From a virus: a stretch of 64,000 nucleotides of DNA. The position numbers and the translations under genes were made by a program. The stretch lies in IMG/VR virus record IMGVR_UViG_3300031873_000003, positions 29,791 through 93,790 of that record; one strand, 5' to 3'. Position 1 is the stretch's first letter. Each line of letters starts with the position of its first letter. This document shows positions 695 through 62,490 of the stretch, one piece after another. A model generated the notes under the pieces. It searched no databases. It had not been told where the DNA came from and saw only the letters and a list, made by a program, of their open reading frames with translations.

Positions 695-802
695 TTCTGC
701 ATCCATTAAACGCCCCTGCTCTTAACGCAGATTCGGTGTTTTTGGAAATATAAGAAAGGCTTGGACCCCTACAAAAGGGATTCTCCAGGAGAGTGAAGAT
801 TA

Positions 803-1828
803 ATGGGAAGACAGGTTACGGCAAAAGAGTTGGATCTGGATGATGGGTACGAGGAAAGGGATGATGTCCCTGCTGGCGAGGGTCCCGATAAGGATTCACC
901 CGAAACCAAATTTAAGGGCGCACCCGATCATGGCGCAATAGGGGCAGAAGTAGTTGAAGAGGAAGTGGAAGAAGCAAAGGCACGGCAGAAAAAGGCTGAC
1001 AAAGACCGAGCGGCAGAGGAGTCAGAAAAAGTAGAGGGAGGGGAAAATGAAAAAGAACAACCCCTTCAATACAAAGACCAGGTCGCCGCTGAAAAGGCCG
1101 TCAGAGAAGCCAAAAGGAAGATGACGGAGGCCACCACAAAGGCTGCGAAGTTACAAAGCATTGTCACAGACCTTGAAAAACGTGTGCAAACAGCCTCCAG
1201 TGAAGCTCCCAATACGGCTCCTGCCGAAAACCCCTGGGATATGAAACGCCAGAAGGTTGCCGATGACACCATAACCAAGGCTGCGGCCATTGCGTCTCCC
1301 GCACCACCACAGGACAGGGATGATCCAGACTTCGACGCCAAGTGGACCGATTATCAAAAGAAGATGGGGGAATACAACGCAAAGGTAGCAAGAGCGTGGG
1401 CGGATGCGCAAACAGAGATTGCCAATCTTGCAATCGAAGAGCGTGAGGAAGCCAAAAAAAACAAAGAAACCGTTATCTTCGCTGTTGATAACGCACTTGA
1501 GGAAGCTGGACTAATCACCGACAAGTCGTCCCAGAAAGAGAAAGATAGCGTACTGAAACTCTTCTGGTCGATGTCGGGAGACGTATCAAAGTCTCTTCCA
1601 ATGGAAGACCAGATCAAACAGACCGCCGATCTGTGTAAGGATTTTGTTGATGAACTTAGAGGCAAAGAGAGGGAGCGTGTCAAGAAAGAGAAAATTAACC
1701 AGGACGATCTACAGGTCTTGGGACGTGGCTCCAGAGTAACCACCCAAAAACAACCGGAGATCACTCTAACCATAGGGGAAGCTCAAAGAGCAGTTATGGA
1801 AAGGAGAAGACTCCGCCGTAATCCATAA
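803..1828 (+). CDS. putative capsid scaffolding protein
   Basis: Acidic, coiled-coil-like 341-aa ORF directly upstream of the major capsid gene. Confidence 0.65.
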   Translation: MGRQVTAKELDLDDGYEERDDVPAGEGPDKDSPETKFKGAPDHGAIGAEVVEEEVEEAKARQKKADKDRAAEESEKVEGGENEKEQPLQYKDQVAAEKAVREAKRKMTEATTKAAKLQSIVTDLEKRVQTASSEAPNTAPAENPWDMKRQKVADDTITKAAAIASPAPPQDRDDPDFDAKWTDYQKKMGEYNAKVARAWADAQTEIANLAIEEREEAKKNKETVIFAVDNALEEAGLITDKSSQKEKDSVLKLFWSMSGDVSKSLPMEDQIKQTADLCKDFVDELRGKERERVKKEKINQDDLQVLGRGSRVTTQKQPEITLTIGEAQRAVMERRRLRRNP

Positions 1829-1841
1829 GGAGGAATATATC

Positions 1842-3349
1842 ATGGCAGAAATGACATGGGAATTTAGTGCACCATCAGGCGTCAATGTAGGCGCCATTAA
1901 GGAGTGATTCTTAATGCAAACCCAGAATTTGCTGGAAACACCGAGAATCCAACACTACTTGCCAGAAGGCAGTGAAAACGTGCTTGGTGCGGTCAATCAG
2001 CAGGCAGAACAACCCTTAGCGAATGCTATGCCAACTCTTTACGAAGAGGTAGGTTGTTCGGCCCCAGAGACTTACAATGGGCATCTCTTACGAGAGATGG
2101 TGATAAAGTCCGGCCCTCCGGCGACGGAAGGGATGAGCCGCTACAAAAATTCCGCTATAAGTTCGAAGCTCCGTGAACAGTCGATTGCCGAGTCCAAGTT
2201 CATGGATTTCGTCAGGACGGAACCGGGTTTCGGAAAAAAGCGCGGAGAATCTATCACCATTACACGGGCTGATATTTTGACACAGCCTACCAGCGCCACC
2301 CTCTCCGAACACGATCGGATTCCTGTGGACGACTTTTCTCTGTCTACCACAGCTATCACAGTGTCGGAGTATGGCCGAGCAGTAACATTTACTCACATGA
2401 GTCAATTGCTTTCAAGGTTTGACCCACAAGACCCGATCCAGAAGGCTTTGCGGAAACAGATGACCAAGGCGCTGGACAGGCTTGCGGCAACAACCATGAA
2501 GACGACCTACCTTATTTACGCTCCAACCTCATTGACGGGTGGAACGTTCATGGAGGACGGGACGATTGACACGGCGGCCTTAGTGAACGTCAACATCGAT
2601 CACCTTGGGGCCATCAGGGATGCCTTTGCGGACACCTACGTCGTAGACCCCTACGAGGGAGACGACTACATTGGGCTGCTCTCAACAAAGGCCCTCAGAG
2701 GAATCAAGTCTGACGAAAATTTTGAGACTTGGAAACAGTATCTCCGGGAAGGAGACACCCTGCACAATTCCGAGGTCGGAAAGGTTGAGTCTATTCGGTG
2801 TATCGAGATCAAGGATACCAGTTGCCTTGCCAACAACAAGGGAACGGGATCTGTTCTTGGAGAAGGGATCATCTTCGGAGATGACTTCTGCGCCATGATC
2901 GAGGCAGAAACGCCAGAGGTTAGGGTACAGGTCAACTTCGGACAAGATCATGGTAGAGTGAACTCAGCAGCCTGGTACGGTGTTGAACCCAACTACTTGA
3001 ATTAATTGGGGAATGGCACCATTAAGGAGCGATCTTTAATGAAAAACCCTGAATTTGCTGGAATAACCGAGAATCCGACACTACTCGCCAATGGCAGTGA
3101 AAATGTGTTCGGTGCGGTCAATCAGCAGACAGGACGATCCTTAGCGTCTTCAAACGCTTTGCCAACTCTTACCGAAAGAGGTAGATCGTCCGGTTTCAGA
3201 GGCCACCAAGGGGCATCTCCACAAGGAGATGATGGTATGGTCCATCCCACCGGCGACGGATGGGGAGCCAATGCGTAGGCTTAGGTTTAGTTTGGCCGTT
3301 GACTGCCACGGCAGGAAAAGTCCGAGGGGCGTTCATAAGTTCCTCGTGA
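1842..3349 (+). CDS. major capsid protein, spliced: join(1842..1882,2141..2983,3274..3349), 319 aa
   Basis: AGGAGG RBS before ATG 1842. Removing two group I introns gives one frame, MAEMTWEFSAPSGV-YKNSAISSKL...AWYGV-VGLGLVWPLTATAGKVRGAFISSS*. Capsid-like motifs GESITI, EYGRAV, EVGKVESIR. Confidence 0.85.
1883..2140 (+). ncRNA. group I intron 1 (258 nt, no ORF) in the major capsid gene
   Basis: 5' exon ends GGCGU and pairs with GCGCC 1891-1895 (U-G wobble, P1). UGUAG 1886-1890 pairs with 3' exon CUACA (P10). Core elements GAAUUUGCUGGAAA, AAUCAGCAGG, CAGAGACUUACA, GAUAAAGUCC. Terminal G at 2140. In-frame TGA at 1905 makes splicing necessary. Confidence 0.92.
2984..3273 (+). ncRNA. group I intron 2 (290 nt, no ORF) in the major capsid gene
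   Basis: Exon GGUGU pairs with GCACC 3016-3020. Same core as intron 1, with compensatory P7 changes (GGCCA 3201-3205 / UGGUC 3238-3242). Terminal G at 3273 restores the frame. Confidence 0.87.
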
Positions 3350-3365
3350 TAATTGAGGAATTTTA

Positions 3366-3498
3366 AGAATGATAGCGGCGGGAATCGCCGGTACTGCCAG
3401 TCGAGGCACTGTTAGTCGAGCCAGGGGGCGAAAACCCTCTGTCCTTGCCCGTGCCGTTGAAGCTGGAAGCCCCCGCCTTTAGGCGTGGGGTAATTCAC
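3366..3498 (+). mobile_element. orphan IS200/IS605 right end, TnpB omega-RNA-like scaffold (no tnpB)
   Basis: GCGGCGGGAATCGCCG...GAAGCTGGAAGCCCCCGCCTTTAGGCGTGGGGTAATTCAC; subterminal hairpin and TCAC terminus; left boundary approximate. Confidence 0.65.
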
Positions 3499-3598
3499 AT
3501 AGGGCAGGAACTGCCCAAATCAACGTTTGGGGAGAGGCGGTGTATCAATGCCCTTCAACGAACCAAGAAGCCCCGTCCGTAAGGGCGGGGTAGTTCAC
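3499..3598 (+). mobile_element. second orphan IS200/IS605 right end, omega-RNA-like scaffold in tandem
   Basis: AGGGCAGGAACTGCCC...AAGAAGCCCCGTCCGTAAGGGCGGGGTAGTTCAC. Confidence 0.65.
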
Positions 3599-3637
3599 AC
3601 AATCTTACGCTAAGGCGTAAAAAAGGAGGTAACAACG

Positions 3638-4087
3638 ATGGCTTACACAGATTCTAAGTGTTTATGTATTGGTGAAGGAGAAGCAACATCAGCTACTTTA
3701 GGTTTTGCCGCAAGTGCAACGGTTGTTTGCTTGGTGAGACAGCCCTGTACCCTTTATGCGGTTGGTGCTCTGGTCCGGGTAGTCATGGATACAAATGCCG
3801 CAGCCATAGTGGTGACTCGAAGAGTTATCCCGAATAGCGATGTCGGTGCAACGGCGGTGGCTACCGTTACCCTTCCAACCCTCACCGCTGCGGGGAAGAT
3901 TGTCTATAAGGGAGGTGTTAATCCGCAGACCGTCGCAAATCTTCTTCCTGTCAAGCTCAATGCTGGGGATGAATTAAAATTTGTTGCGGATGGTGGAGGA
4001 GGGTCTTATTACTGGAAGCCCTGGTTTGAGGCATATCCTCGACCAGAAACGATGGATAACAACACTGACTTTATTGAAAGTGCATAA
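3638..4087 (+). CDS. putative head decoration or minor capsid protein
   Basis: AGGAGG RBS; beta-strand-rich Ala/Val/Thr composition; follows the major capsid gene. Confidence 0.6.
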   Translation: MAYTDSKCLCIGEGEATSATLGFAASATVVCLVRQPCTLYAVGALVRVVMDTNAAAIVVTRRVIPNSDVGATAVATVTLPTLTAAGKIVYKGGVNPQTVANLLPVKLNAGDELKFVADGGGGSYYWKPWFEAYPRPETMDNNTDFIESA

Positions 4088-6174: not shown

Positions 6175-6399
6175 GTGTCGCCGAACGCATTCCCCTGATT
6201 TTAATCGGGGGTAAGTGAGGCACTTGACAAATTCAGGTAGGGCAGGATATGCCCTAATTAACGCCTGTGGAGAGACTCACCTCTGCTTTTCGATTTCGTC
6301 GAAAAGTAAGTGGACTCAAAGAAGCAGGAACCGTACTTGGAGGTTGCTAATGAGCAACCAACAAGGATGCCCCCGAATTCATTCGGGGGAGGATGTCAC
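6175..6399 (+). mobile_element. miniature non-autonomous IS200/IS605-family element with omega-RNA-like 3' part
   Basis: Left hairpin CCCCTGATTTTAATCGGGGG; scaffold AGGGCAGGATATGCCC..GCCTGTGGAG..GAAGCAGGAA; right hairpin CCCCCGAATTCATTCGGGGGAGGATGTCAC; left boundary approximate. Confidence 0.7.
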
Positions 6400-13780: not shown

Positions 13781-14440
13781 GTGAGTGACATAACTCTTCT
13801 GTACTATACAGCAAACAGAATACCTGATCGCTTTGCGGTGAACGTCAGAAACCACTTGATTATAACGGCACAAGGGAAGCCTATTATCAGTATCTCCCAA
13901 CAACCTATCAATCTTGGAGAAAACATATGTGTTGGTGATATAGGATATACCGTTCCAAATGTCTATGCACAGATTTTGGTGGGAGCCAAGATGGCAAAAA
14001 CACAGTACGTTGCTTGTTGTGAAGACGATACCCTGTATGTCCCGGAGCATTTTGACTATATTCCGCCAGACGATACGTTTGGATACAATAAGAACAGGTG
14101 GAATCTTACCGAAAGCCATTTCTATTTACAGTCTCGAAGGTCAAACATGTGTGTATGCATAGTTCCAACCGAATCGATGATAAGGACGCTTGAGGAAAGG
14201 GTAACTAAGTTTGGTTCTGGAGGGCCTCCTCACCTTGGAGAACCTGGGAGACGTGAGAGAACGATGGGAATCAATACAGTAAAGGCTTGTAAGTTCAACA
14301 CTATTGATCCTGTGTTACAAATTAATCATGCCATATCCCTTGGTGGAATTCGGAGGCGGGCGAATTACAACGTAATCCAGGCAGAACATCCTGCGTGGGG
14401 GAAAGCCTCCGCTTTATGGGAAAAAATGGTGAATGGATAG
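13781..14440 (+). CDS. glycosyltransferase (GT-A fold)
   Basis: GTG start; YVACCEDDTLY acidic motif; paralogous to the C-terminal domain of 23113..25587. Confidence 0.7.
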   Translation: MSDITLLYYTANRIPDRFAVNVRNHLIITAQGKPIISISQQPINLGENICVGDIGYTVPNVYAQILVGAKMAKTQYVACCEDDTLYVPEHFDYIPPDDTFGYNKNRWNLTESHFYLQSRRSNMCVCIVPTESMIRTLEERVTKFGSGGPPHLGEPGRRERTMGINTVKACKFNTIDPVLQINHAISLGGIRRRANYNVIQAEHPAWGKASALWEKMVNG

Positions 14441-31974: not shown

Positions 31975-32676
31975 ATGCCAGAGCGACTAAATAAAAGGAT
32001 TTGCGAGTTTTGCGGCAAGGAATATCAGACACACAACAGTACAAGAACGTGCTCTATAAAGTGTCGTGACCACTTAAAAACGCAGAACAGGATACAGCGA
32101 TCTGAAACTAAGGAATGCCCGATCTGCGGAGAGATAAGTAAGTTGCAGTGGATTGCTCACGGGATAAGTGTGTGCAGTTTGAGATGCAAACGAACAATTA
32201 ACTCAAGGGAATGGCGCAACCAACATGGCGGATCAGTTGATATTAGTAAACGTAGCACAATAAAGCCTTTTGTAACTTGTAAGGTGTGCGGGAAAATCGT
32301 TTTGGGTAAAAGCTACAAACAATTATATTGCAGTAGAGAGTGTAAAATAATTGGCGGACATCGAAACAAGAAAATGATAGTTGATAATAAAAGGGAGTCT
32401 ATAAAGACTTGCGAAATATGCGGCGTGTCTATTGATAAAATTCCAACTCCAAGAGAACTCAACTTCAGATCGTTTGGGCAAAGGGCGATGGATACTAAGG
32501 TGCAATTCGATCACATTGTTTGCCGAGTTGATAACGGACAAAACAACGACGAGAATCTTCGAGGTGTGTGTTGGATGTGTAACCACGTAAGGGGAACGAT
32601 GGACAAGAAGTTCGACAACGCCGTGGCAAAAGCGTCAATAGCGTTTTGGGCTGAGGTATTTGCTACAATTACCTAG
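31975..32676 (+). CDS. HNH endonuclease with multiple CxxC zinc motifs
   Basis: FDHIV...NLRGVCWMCNHVRG; AGGAGG RBS. Confidence 0.8.
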   Translation: MPERLNKRICEFCGKEYQTHNSTRTCSIKCRDHLKTQNRIQRSETKECPICGEISKLQWIAHGISVCSLRCKRTINSREWRNQHGGSVDISKRSTIKPFVTCKVCGKIVLGKSYKQLYCSRECKIIGGHRNKKMIVDNKRESIKTCEICGVSIDKIPTPRELNFRSFGQRAMDTKVQFDHIVCRVDNGQNNDENLRGVCWMCNHVRGTMDKKFDNAVAKASIAFWAEVFATIT

Positions 32677-56424: not shown

Positions 56425-57605
56425 TCATACATAAAAACCTCCGTAATTATAAAACCTATCTATGTTTTCTATTCTGACAGTTCTGTTCTTTCCCTGATAA
56501 TCATTATAAGCAACTCTTGTTCCTAAATTCTGACATCCTTTAGAAACGAATGGTTGACCATCTATATAAATCAAATCCTTATTTTGAACCTTGTATTTTT
56601 GTTTTCTTATGGAAGGCTTAAAACCTATCCTGTTTAACTGTAAGGCTCTATTATTTCTTCTTTTTTGTGTCCACCTTACTTCTTTACATCTTTCTTGAAC
56701 TGTTCCGTTACCTATTACAAAAGCATCATTAGTATGAGATTTTTCAAGGTTTAGTTCGTTTCTTTTTACTTTAGTTTCATATCCATAAGTTACTGCTGTT
56801 GGATACAATTCCTGTGTTCTTCGGACTACTTCTTTCCTGATTATATTCATCATTGTTGCATCTTTGTATTGCTTATTTTTTGTCAAAAGATGATGCAAGT
56901 TCTTTTTATGTAGTCTTTCATGACATTTCTCATGTAAAAGAGCTAAATTATCAGGTTTATCAGTTCCTTTAGGTTTTGGAATTATATGATGCAATCTAAA
57001 ACCATTACCTTTACTTGATTCCTTGCCGCATAGCTGGCATTTTCCATGTTCTCTTGTTGTCACATAAGCCTTTACATTTTCATAACCATAAAGAATTCCT
57101 TGTTGATATTCTTTTCCCGATATTTCCGGATTTAAAATTTTCTGAATATCAAACTTTCCCGATTCCACACAAACTCTTGATACAGGAACATATTTAGAAA
57201 TCTTATCAAGAATCCCTATATGAGAATCAATCTTATGCTGTACTGATGGAGCAAATATGAATCCTTTTCTGTTGTCGAATCTTGGTTCTCTGTACCATAA
57301 TCTGTTTCTTCTATTTCTTCGATACATAGCTCTTTCTTCAATCTTGTCACTTACATCGGTTCTTAATTTTACTTCAATTCTTACTATTTCTCTCTTTTCC
57401 GTTCTTACTGATACACCTGCATATTCGTAGCCTGTATCTAAACTAAAAATAATCTCTTGTGTCTTTTCTTCACAGCTAAAATTAAGCTGGATAACAAACG
57501 GAAATCTTTTAATTACTGTAGCCTTACCCGATTTTACCATACGTTTGCTCTTAGCATAAGAACAAGGCATCAAAGGTTTACCTTCCTTTGAAAGGACAAG
57601 TACAA
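56425..57605 (-). CDS. iscB: IscB RNA-guided nuclease; true start near VLVLSKEGKPLMP, not 57780
   Basis: PLMP motif, RuvC-I LDTG, RRNRR bridge helix, RuvC-II E, HNH (HHII..N..H), RuvC-III HTNDA. Confidence 0.92.
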
Positions 57606-57865
57606 GTGCTTGTATTGAGCGTCCTACTTGTTGGACTTGATTCTCTTCGGGATTGATTAATACTGGCTGTATGCTCTTATCACTAAGAATTTCTTCTTTG
57701 TTTAGACAAGAACTCTCAGAGCAGAGAACTAGAGAAGTATTCTCTGGTGAATTCTTTAGCCTTATATTAATCTTCTGCATAGTTTCCTAAGCTCCCTAAT
57801 CAACTCTTTTCATCGTTGTACGTCACCGTACAAGCCCCTTGGTCTTTAGCCAAGGGGTAGTTGAC
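57606..57865 (-). ncRNA. IscB omega-RNA scaffold
   Basis: Structured region between the element end and the PLMP motif. Confidence 0.7.
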
Positions 57866-58166
57866 ACTCGTTGGATTGAATAAGATCAACCTCCAATTTT
57901 TCTTTCTCTACTTTTTCTTTTTTCTCAATATTAGGATAACTTCTAAATCCCAGTCTAAACGAGAACTCGACCTTTTCATCTTCCCCTAGAGAATCCCACT
58001 GATTGTATCCATCAGCTATATCATTCCATTCTTTCATAATTTCAATATAGTTCATGGTTTCTCCCTCCTTGTCGAGCAAGCGGTCAATAGCCAGCATTTC
58101 CAGTCGTGTTCGATATTACCACTCTTCCCTATCTGGCCACAGGTGTTGTATTGACCGCCGCTCAGG

Positions 58167-62250: not shown

Positions 62251-62490
62251 TTATGCGACTTCAATTGGCTCTGGGACTGGAAATGCTACAAATTTCGATG
62301 AAATCCCATGTCCACAAACTACTTCATATACTCTTGTTTCACCCTTCATTTTTGTCAGTGAACTGCAAACAATCAAGGTTCCTTCTCCTCCTTCTACTCC
62401 TTGAATACGCCATGGAACTATATATTCTTTTCCATTACAATCACAACCCGTTTTCTTACAAATACTGCATCGTGTTATTCGCTCTCTCAT
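62251..62490 (-). CDS. cassette hypothetical protein
   Basis: GGAGG RBS; stop codon lies in the attC core. Confidence 0.55.
   Translation of the reverse strand: MRERITRCSICKKTGCDCNGKEYIVPWRIQGVEGGEGTLIVCSSLTKMKGETRVYEVVCGHGISSKFVAFPVPEPIEVA

Follow-up and report, generated by a model that had tools for sequence, protein, structure and literature searches.

The region at positions 1842-3349 (plus strand) of the window analyzed here raises the question of how a phage encodes its major capsid protein when the only capsid-like reading frame in sight appears to have the wrong ends. The window is the right-hand 64 kilobases (kb) of the 93,790-nucleotide (nt) IMG/VR record IMGVR_UViG_3300031873_000003, which derives from an uncultured phage. 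The sole capsid-like protein of the region is encoded by a frame of 363 amino acids (aa; 1914-3005, +), which we regard as spurious. Instead, the major capsid gene is very probably split by two mutually homologous group I introns, both free of an endonuclease gene, whose removal would yield a 319-aa capsid protein. An earlier reading made from the letters alone (hereafter the sequence-only reading) had proposed a capsid gene with two sibling introns devoid of open reading frames. This central claim is supported by the exon joins, the ribozyme structure, the covariation, and the existence of intron-less relatives, and its statements at the sequence level, including the coordinates of gene, introns, and junctions, all hold.

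The split gene begins with ATG at 1842, downstream of a Shine-Dalgarno sequence (AAGGAGG, 1827-1833, +), and terminates with TGA at 3347-3349. Exon 1 (1842-1882, +; 41 nt) comprises 13 codons plus 2 nt, and its translation matches the N-termini of the intron-less 319-aa homologs P0001-P0008. Beyond these 13 codons, the frame enters intron 1 (1883-2140, +; 258 nt) and meets the in-frame stop TGA at 1905-1907. Exon 2 (2141-2983, +; 843 nt) holds the body of an N4-gp56-family capsid protein (PF25209, phrog_1357). Its frame continues into intron 2 (2984-3273, +; 290 nt), where it ends at TAA 3003-3005. Both introns match Rfam family RF00028, and neither contains an endonuclease gene. Exon 3 (3274-3349, +; 76 nt) contributes the last base of a split Val codon and 24 codons that match the C-termini of intron-less homologs. 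The joined exons amount to 41 + 843 + 76 = 960 nt, corresponding to 319 aa. The spurious frame, in turn, starts from an ATG in helix P2 of intron 1, runs in frame through exon 2, and ends after the first 22 nt of intron 2.

The identity of the protein is established by several comparisons. The part encoded by 2142-2981 matches Pfam Phage_capsid_4 (PF25209) with 27.6 bits against a cut-off of 27, and the capsid hits major-head families in PHROG, among them phrog_1357 (major head protein) at 3.6e-9. Its 307 database homologs are nearly all 313-321 aa long; the top ones reach 87-90% identity, and several carry the JGI name "N4-gp56 family major capsid protein". Among GenBank phages, the best capsid match is only 27% identical. 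The joined 319-aa product has the exact length of the eight closest full-length homologs. Moreover, the homolog alignment put forward as a check in the sequence-only reading was carried out, and the spliced product aligns with the intron-less 319-aa capsids gap-free over both predicted joins, SAPSGV/YKN and AAWYGV/VGLGLVWP (the slash marks the join). At the DNA level, both sites are uninterrupted in nine related viral contigs (L001-L008, L010), and site 2 is additionally uninterrupted in L011 and L036. The intron ends were set to the single nucleotide by requiring a U before the insert and a G at its end, the position of the terminal G being further fixed because the ligated exons have to match the intron-less sequence. 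As the phage genome (93.8 kb) is rated 100% complete, its capsid gene should be functional.

Both inserts resemble group I introns over their entire length. In a permissive Rfam scan over 1700-3700 (2 kb), Intron_gpI (RF00028) matches intron 1 full-length with 42.1 bits (E 7.5e-9) and intron 2 full-length with 26.6 bits (E 3.3e-4). The group I model search suggested earlier thus recovers both inserts end to end, though under the curated gathering score of 50 bits. We derived a P1-P10 structure by hand and modeled 77 pairs. The full architecture fits both inserts, including the P3-P8 and P4-P6 domains and the P3/P7 pseudoknot, and the P1 helix with its U-G splice site, the conserved core, and the terminal G described in the sequence-only reading are present in both.

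In intron 1, the 5-base-pair (bp) helix P1 (1878-1882/1891-1895) ends with the U1882-G1891 wobble, and the P10 guide (1886-1890) forms five perfect base pairs with 2141-2145, as had been claimed. P2 (1897-1903/1908-1914) is followed by P3 (1921-1924/2078-2081), P4 (1930-1935/1997-2002), P5 (1940-1943/1990-1993), and P5a (1949-1963/1968-1987). P6 and P6a occupy 2003-2014/2052-2063 with hairpins at 2018-2027 and 2035-2048, while P7 (2069-2073/2106-2110), P8 (2083-2088/2093-2098), and P9 (2114-2120/2125-2132) lead to the terminal G2140. In intron 2, P1 (2979-2983/3016-3020) likewise consists of 5 bp and ends with a wobble, U2983-G3016, here closing an enlarged 32-nt loop. The remaining helices are P2 (3022-3028/3033-3039), P3 (3047-3050/3210-3213), P4 (3056-3061/3122-3127), P5 (3066-3069/3115-3118), P5a (3075-3089/3093-3112), P6 and P6a (3128-3139/3184-3195), P7 (3201-3205/3238-3242), P8 (3215-3220/3225-3230), and P9 (3246-3252/3257-3264), with G3273 as the terminal G. 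All elements lie on the plus strand. P2 carries a GNRA loop, P9 is capped by GCGA, P5a is extended and contains an A-rich bulge, and P6 forms a three-way junction. The first G-C pair of P7 is unchanged in all four copies compared (the two introns of the window and the site-2 introns of the related contigs L029 and L035); P7 can accommodate a putative G-binding pair.

The pairing scheme is conserved despite considerable sequence divergence. The two introns, described beforehand as clearly homologous, share 83% mean column identity in a MAFFT alignment and 76.6% identity over 244 core positions. All 77 modeled pairs are standard in both: 62 are identical, 11 differ on both sides, four differ on a single side (G-C to G-U), and every pair stays intact through 26 substituted paired positions. 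When the 3' partners were slid by 1-3 columns as a control, pairing dropped to 34-47%. Across the four introns, pairing holds in 99.3% of cells, with compensatory change in 11 pairs. RNAalifold, run without the hand structure, recovers P2, P4, P5, P5a, P6, P7, P8, and P9, and picks P7 over P3, as these two helices cross. The minimum-energy fold of intron 2 as a single sequence yields P1, P2, P3, P4, P5, P6, P8, and P9 (z = -2.6).

The second line of evidence comes from the insertion sites. Both introns follow GGYGU and interrupt a Gly-Val codon pair after the second base of the Val codon (phase 2), the same context and phase noted in the sequence-only reading. GGYGUC occurs twice in the joined coding sequence, exactly at the two intron sites. 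Beyond GGNGU, the sites have little in common, since their flanks are identical at only 6-10 of 30 positions, which is about the random level. Among phages, the Gly codon differs at its synonymous third position, and the guide base that pairs with this position changes in step. Thus, GGCGU is matched by the guide GCGCC (a C-G pair) at site 1 of the window and at site 2 of L029, GGUGU by GCACC (U-A) at site 2 of the window, and GGGGU by GCCC (G-C) at site 2 of L035. The proposal that the guides are retuned to each site is therefore confirmed by the change from the C-G pair in P1 of intron 1 to U-A in intron 2, and extended by a third pair type in L035. The P10 guide is site-specific as well, with five perfect base pairs at site 1 and a 3-bp helix in all three site-2 introns. 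Such matching of both guides to their sites is what selection for splicing predicts.

Several points weigh against this interpretation. Both Rfam scores stay below the 50-bit gathering score; at this threshold, a scan of the whole window returns a HEARO RNA only and no intron, and an RF00028 search of the whole genome gives no match even at E<=1. The default Rfam scan missed both introns because their scores lie under the curated threshold. Further, the structure was built from the same sequences on which it was scored, which inflates the contrast with the slid controls, and the covariation rests on four close copies only. P10 of intron 2 comprises just 3 bp, and its P1 loop holds a 24-nt insertion. 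Finally, splicing, catalysis, and independence from protein helpers are deduced from DNA sequence alone, while anatomy, junctions, covariation, presence or absence among relatives, and a shared flank are observed directly.

The distribution among relatives places the two introns in a mobile family. A covariance model made from the two window introns (R1) finds only these two in the whole genome. Among relatives, both sites are occupied in some and empty in others. L009 (= L033 contig), whose capsid is 89% identical, carries the same ribozyme at site 1 within a 661-nt intron. P6 of this intron holds a 198-aa frame (1870-2466) that lies on the same strand and starts inside P2; it matches I-MsoI (E 3.8e-6) and also I-CvuI and I-CreI, all single-motif LAGLIDADG enzymes, and has no match in Pfam. 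The site-2 introns of L029 and L035 are endonuclease-less and score 293 and 283 bits with R1; site 1 of L029 is empty. Additionally, L029 (Ga0315276_10177051) contains a third intron site at ~152-821, after codon 8 (W-E/F) and six codons upstream of site 1. The group I core of the intron at this position is an unrelated one (Rfam 25 bits), and the intron carries a LAGLIDADG frame of its own (208-825); this frame reaches 21.6 bits for LAGLIDADG_3, just under the cut-off of 22.5, and also resembles I-CvuI (9.6e-4). The ribosome-binding site and ATG of the endonuclease gene are kept in P2 of all four copies that lack the gene, and the ATG at 1914, from which the spurious frame starts, is this kept start in intron 1. 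Their retention without a coding body suggests that the window introns lost the endonuclease gene, a direction of change that we infer. The capsid family is an intron hot-spot, repeatedly colonized by a mobile intron family.

More distant relatives of the ribozyme were also encountered. Capsids 30-47% identical to that of the window carry endonuclease-bearing versions (L026, L027, L028). The intron of L028 (1403-2086, -) sits 2 nt from site 1, and those of L026 (9100-9830) and L027 (6360-7105, -) lie at an approximate position ~20 codons downstream of it. Related ribozymes without an endonuclease gene are found in an AAA-ATPase gene (L017 5037-5279, -), directly downstream of a GIY-YIG endonuclease gene (L025 2488-2725, = L015, L024), where no coding junction could be reconstructed, and, past ...ERYG close to the C-terminus, in a distant gene resembling Phage_capsid_4 (L018 10985-11260, = L022). 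The latter capsid is too divergent from that of the window for a BLAST comparison, and an equivalence with site 2 is a lead only. A blastn search of intron 1 against GenBank phages gave no match.

How did one gene acquire two siblings? With the L035 intron, intron 2 shares 93% identity, and with the L029 intron 88.5%, but with intron 1 only 77%. The siblings thus diverged before the phages exchanged or inherited the site-2 intron; the pair is not a recent duplication within this genome, and the split between site-1 and site-2 introns is older. The exons point in the same direction. Exon 2 of the window is the most divergent of the set, with at most 80% nucleotide identity, a long branch, and 78% identity to L035. 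Exon 3, in contrast, is 83% identical to L035 versus 53-62% for intron-less alleles, and the first 12 nt past site 2 are identical in all three alleles with a site-2 intron and different in every intron-less allele. This shared exon 3 and 12-nt flank indicate recent movement by DNA recombination, so that intron 2 entered or persisted by recombination that carried exon 3 along in a co-conversion-type tract. Consequently, the recent intragenic spread envisaged in the sequence-only reading is not upheld. The same applies to its suggestion of an HNH enzyme acting in trans: the enzyme linked to the intron in relatives is of the LAGLIDADG type (I-MsoI/I-CreI), and no link connects the HNH frames of the genome to the introns.

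For the original jump from one site to the other, the explanation that survives best, with a chance only slightly short of even, is an origin by DNA-level events throughout. An ancestral LAGLIDADG enzyme or a free-standing enzyme acting in trans would have cut site 2, or recombination during co-infection would have introduced the intron together with its flanks, followed by loss of the endonuclease gene. The endonuclease-bearing allele at site 1 of L009, the start signals kept in the four copies without the gene, and the exon 3 tract shared among site-2 alleles all agree with such a course, and four HNH-domain frames are present in the genome. Yet a homolog of the L009 endonuclease was not found in this phage genome, the two target sites are unlike beyond 5 nt, and the kept ribosome-binding site and ATG sit in the P2 stem, where they may have been maintained for RNA structure alone.

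The competing possibility, which we rate as somewhat less likely, is that the first site-2 copy arose by reverse splicing into the capsid mRNA at a second GGCGU/C, directed by the 5-nt guide only, and was then fixed by reverse transcription and recombination. This would account for two sites that share only GGNGU in otherwise dissimilar flanks, and for site-2 copies without an endonuclease gene. The L029 allele is of particular relevance here: its site-2 exon, GGCGU/C, equals the target at site 1, its guide is the guide of intron 1, and only the P10 guide differs. Moreover, its intron looks intermediate, with a P6 that is 89% identical to that of intron 1 and a 3' half like intron 2. On the other hand, no reverse transcriptase is known in this phage, and none was searched for; the present spread of the site-2 intron bears a co-converted exon flank, the signature of DNA-level transfer; and a match of 5 nt carries little weight, as the guide adapts to any exon it occupies. 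LAGLIDADG enzymes, in addition, tolerate degenerate targets, which makes ectopic cleavage an alternative. The L029 intermediate therefore fits guide-directed reverse splicing without proving it, and ectopic endonuclease cleavage is equally possible for the original jump. A fuller scenario, in which the pair and L029 together record reverse-splicing transposition within one mRNA, followed by spread at the DNA level in a hot-spot with at least five insertion points, is offered as speculation and seems doubtful to us.

Whatever the route of entry, the split capsid gene would be expressed through two splicing events. Each intron is predicted to fold as a P1-P9 ribozyme on the late pre-mRNA. Free guanosine would first attack behind the wobble-paired final U of the preceding exon (U1882 or U2983). 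The exon end released in this way would then attack behind the last G of the intron (G2140 or G3273), and the ligated message would encode the 319-aa capsid. On unspliced RNA, ribosomes would halt at TGA 1905-1907 or TAA 3003-3005, and owing to these early stops no full capsid protein would be made without both splicing events.

This dependence of the full-length product on the removal of both introns could be taken as a regulatory gate, in which splicing efficiency times or throttles capsid production (via GTP or translation-splicing coupling), or in which skipping of exon 2 gives alternative products. As the introns share the same phase, a skip from 1882 to 3274 would stay in frame and leave 117 nt encoding 38 aa, and in Twort orf142 the skipping of an exon that lies between two similar introns has been documented (PMC10136302, PMC11878797). 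However, most close relatives lack one or both introns in an otherwise unchanged gene, so that the introns are dispensable; their presence/absence pattern is that of selfish elements, and no sensor element was found. We thus see no support for a gate and consider it improbable.

That the inserts are inactive relics, other insertions, or inteins, with a capsid gene that is broken or expressed in pieces, could draw on the Rfam scores below the gathering threshold but is hardly credible given that none of the 26 substituted paired positions breaks a pair, that the guide covaries with the exon, that the genome is rated complete, that stops in frame at 1905 and 3003 leave no room for an intein or read-through, that neither terminal inverted repeats nor target duplications are present, and that 5' ends and sizes misfit group II introns.

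Three specific candidates were rejected on the details of the inserts. An intein is incompatible with exon frames that stop at TGA 1905-1907 and TAA 3003-3005, and with the 290 nt of intron 2, which are not a multiple of 3. A group II intron would be expected to start with GUGYG, end with AY, comprise six domains, and exceed ~400 nt; the 5' ends of the inserts misfit, both end in G, and they measure 258 and 290 nt. No group II family was found in the permissive Rfam scan of 1700-3700. Because both introns are open from an internal ATG, a conserved peptide encoded within them was weighed as well, but indels put the frames of the copies out of phase and the L029 frame stops early, so that these frames are regarded as non-coding.

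With two group I introns as the favored reading, the closest known counterpart is orf142, the tail tube gene of Staphylococcus phage Twort, which contains three group I introns, the second and third of them highly similar (Landthaler & Shub 1999, as described in PMC10136302 and PMC11878797). Like the capsid gene of the window, orf142 is a late structural gene with more than one group I intron, including close siblings without endonuclease genes, and exon skipping is possible. Unlike orf142 with its 23-nt middle exon in a tail tube gene, the locus described here is a capsid gene with an 843-nt middle exon in another phage lineage. Furthermore, it comes from an uncultured phage of 94 kb, no GenBank phage having a capsid more than 27% identical to its own, and its introns are known from sequence.

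Introns in capsid genes have precedents. The major capsid gene of mycobacteriophage LittleE contains a group I-type intron proven by RT-PCR and N-terminal sequencing (Pope et al. 2013, PMC3706429). This intron, too, was found via intron-less relatives; the exon before it ends with U and the intron itself with G (PMC3706429). It carries a LAGLIDADG-like frame, and an endonuclease-less sibling is located in a tail gene of BAKA and Optimus (PMC3706429); these siblings thus reside in different genes of different phages, whereas those reported here share one gene of one phage. The LittleE endonuclease frame lies on the opposite strand, in contrast to the frame of L009, which lies on the same strand and starts in P2. 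Splicing in LittleE is experimentally proven, while in the window it is predicted. Lactococcal phage Tuc2009, with a group I intron in its major head gene (cited in PMC3706429), and Lactobacillus phage JCL1032, with group I introns in late genes (cited in PMC6669764), resemble the phage studied here in that late or structural genes of tailed phages are split; they are Firmicutes phages with a single intron per gene instead of two. The metagenomic Jug phages contain ~18 short group I introns per genome (PMC12880540). These are likewise short (~200-300 nt), endonuclease-less, and situated in essential genes of uncultured phages, and they too were detected with covariance models and intron-less homologs (PMC12880540). 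For the Jug phages, terL, nrdD, and DNA polymerase are reported as split (PMC12880540), whereas the two introns of the present genome are both in the capsid gene.

Group I introns in capsid genes, and siblings sharing a single phage structural gene, have thus been published before, and the known picture of phage introns is unchanged. What the present case adds is a pair of siblings in one capsid gene, exon-guide covariation over three states, the co-converted flank, and a capsid family with several insertion points. A guide that tracks a synonymous codon position through three Watson-Crick states is an in vivo signature of selection on P1. The observed alleles (an empty gene, a site-1 intron with or without an endonuclease gene, a site-2 intron lacking one, and an unrelated intron at a third position) form a compact natural set for studying how group I introns select new sites and adjust to them. 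In practical terms, the real 319-aa capsid is invisible to gene callers, which skews capsid-based searches and phage taxonomy on such genomes. The mis-annotation anticipated in the sequence-only reading is real, as callers would deliver the chimeric 363-aa frame and the truncated or mis-extended proteins P0009 and P0011 have already been deposited. These two capsid calls (273 aa and 304 aa, respectively) depart directly after AAWYGV; P0009 reads on into a site-2 intron of the L035 type, and for P0011 (NCBI, 50,952-nt contig) another insert at site 2 is probable.

Elsewhere in the genome, an IscB-type gene of 451 aa (window 56425-57865, -) matches Pfam RRXRR (1e-53) and HNH (5.7e-10). It lies directly downstream of a HEARO/omega RNA (RF02033, 108 bits, 57635-57865) and thus represents an RNA-guided nuclease element in a phage. 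Three more HNH-domain frames, at genome positions 779-892 (-), 14103-14231 (+), and 62287-62376 (+; window 32497-32586), may be free-standing homing endonucleases. The spacer past the capsid stop (window 3350-3637) is ~190 nt longer than in relatives and contains two GC-rich hairpins, each followed by GGGGTARTTCACA (3487-3499, 3587-3599). The sole other near-copy of the 13-mer GGGGTARTTCACA in the window is located at the 5' end of the HEARO RNA (57854-57866). A further segment of the spacer, 3492-3536, is repeated at 6230-6274 (80%). The spacer repeats may be remnants of IscB element ends.

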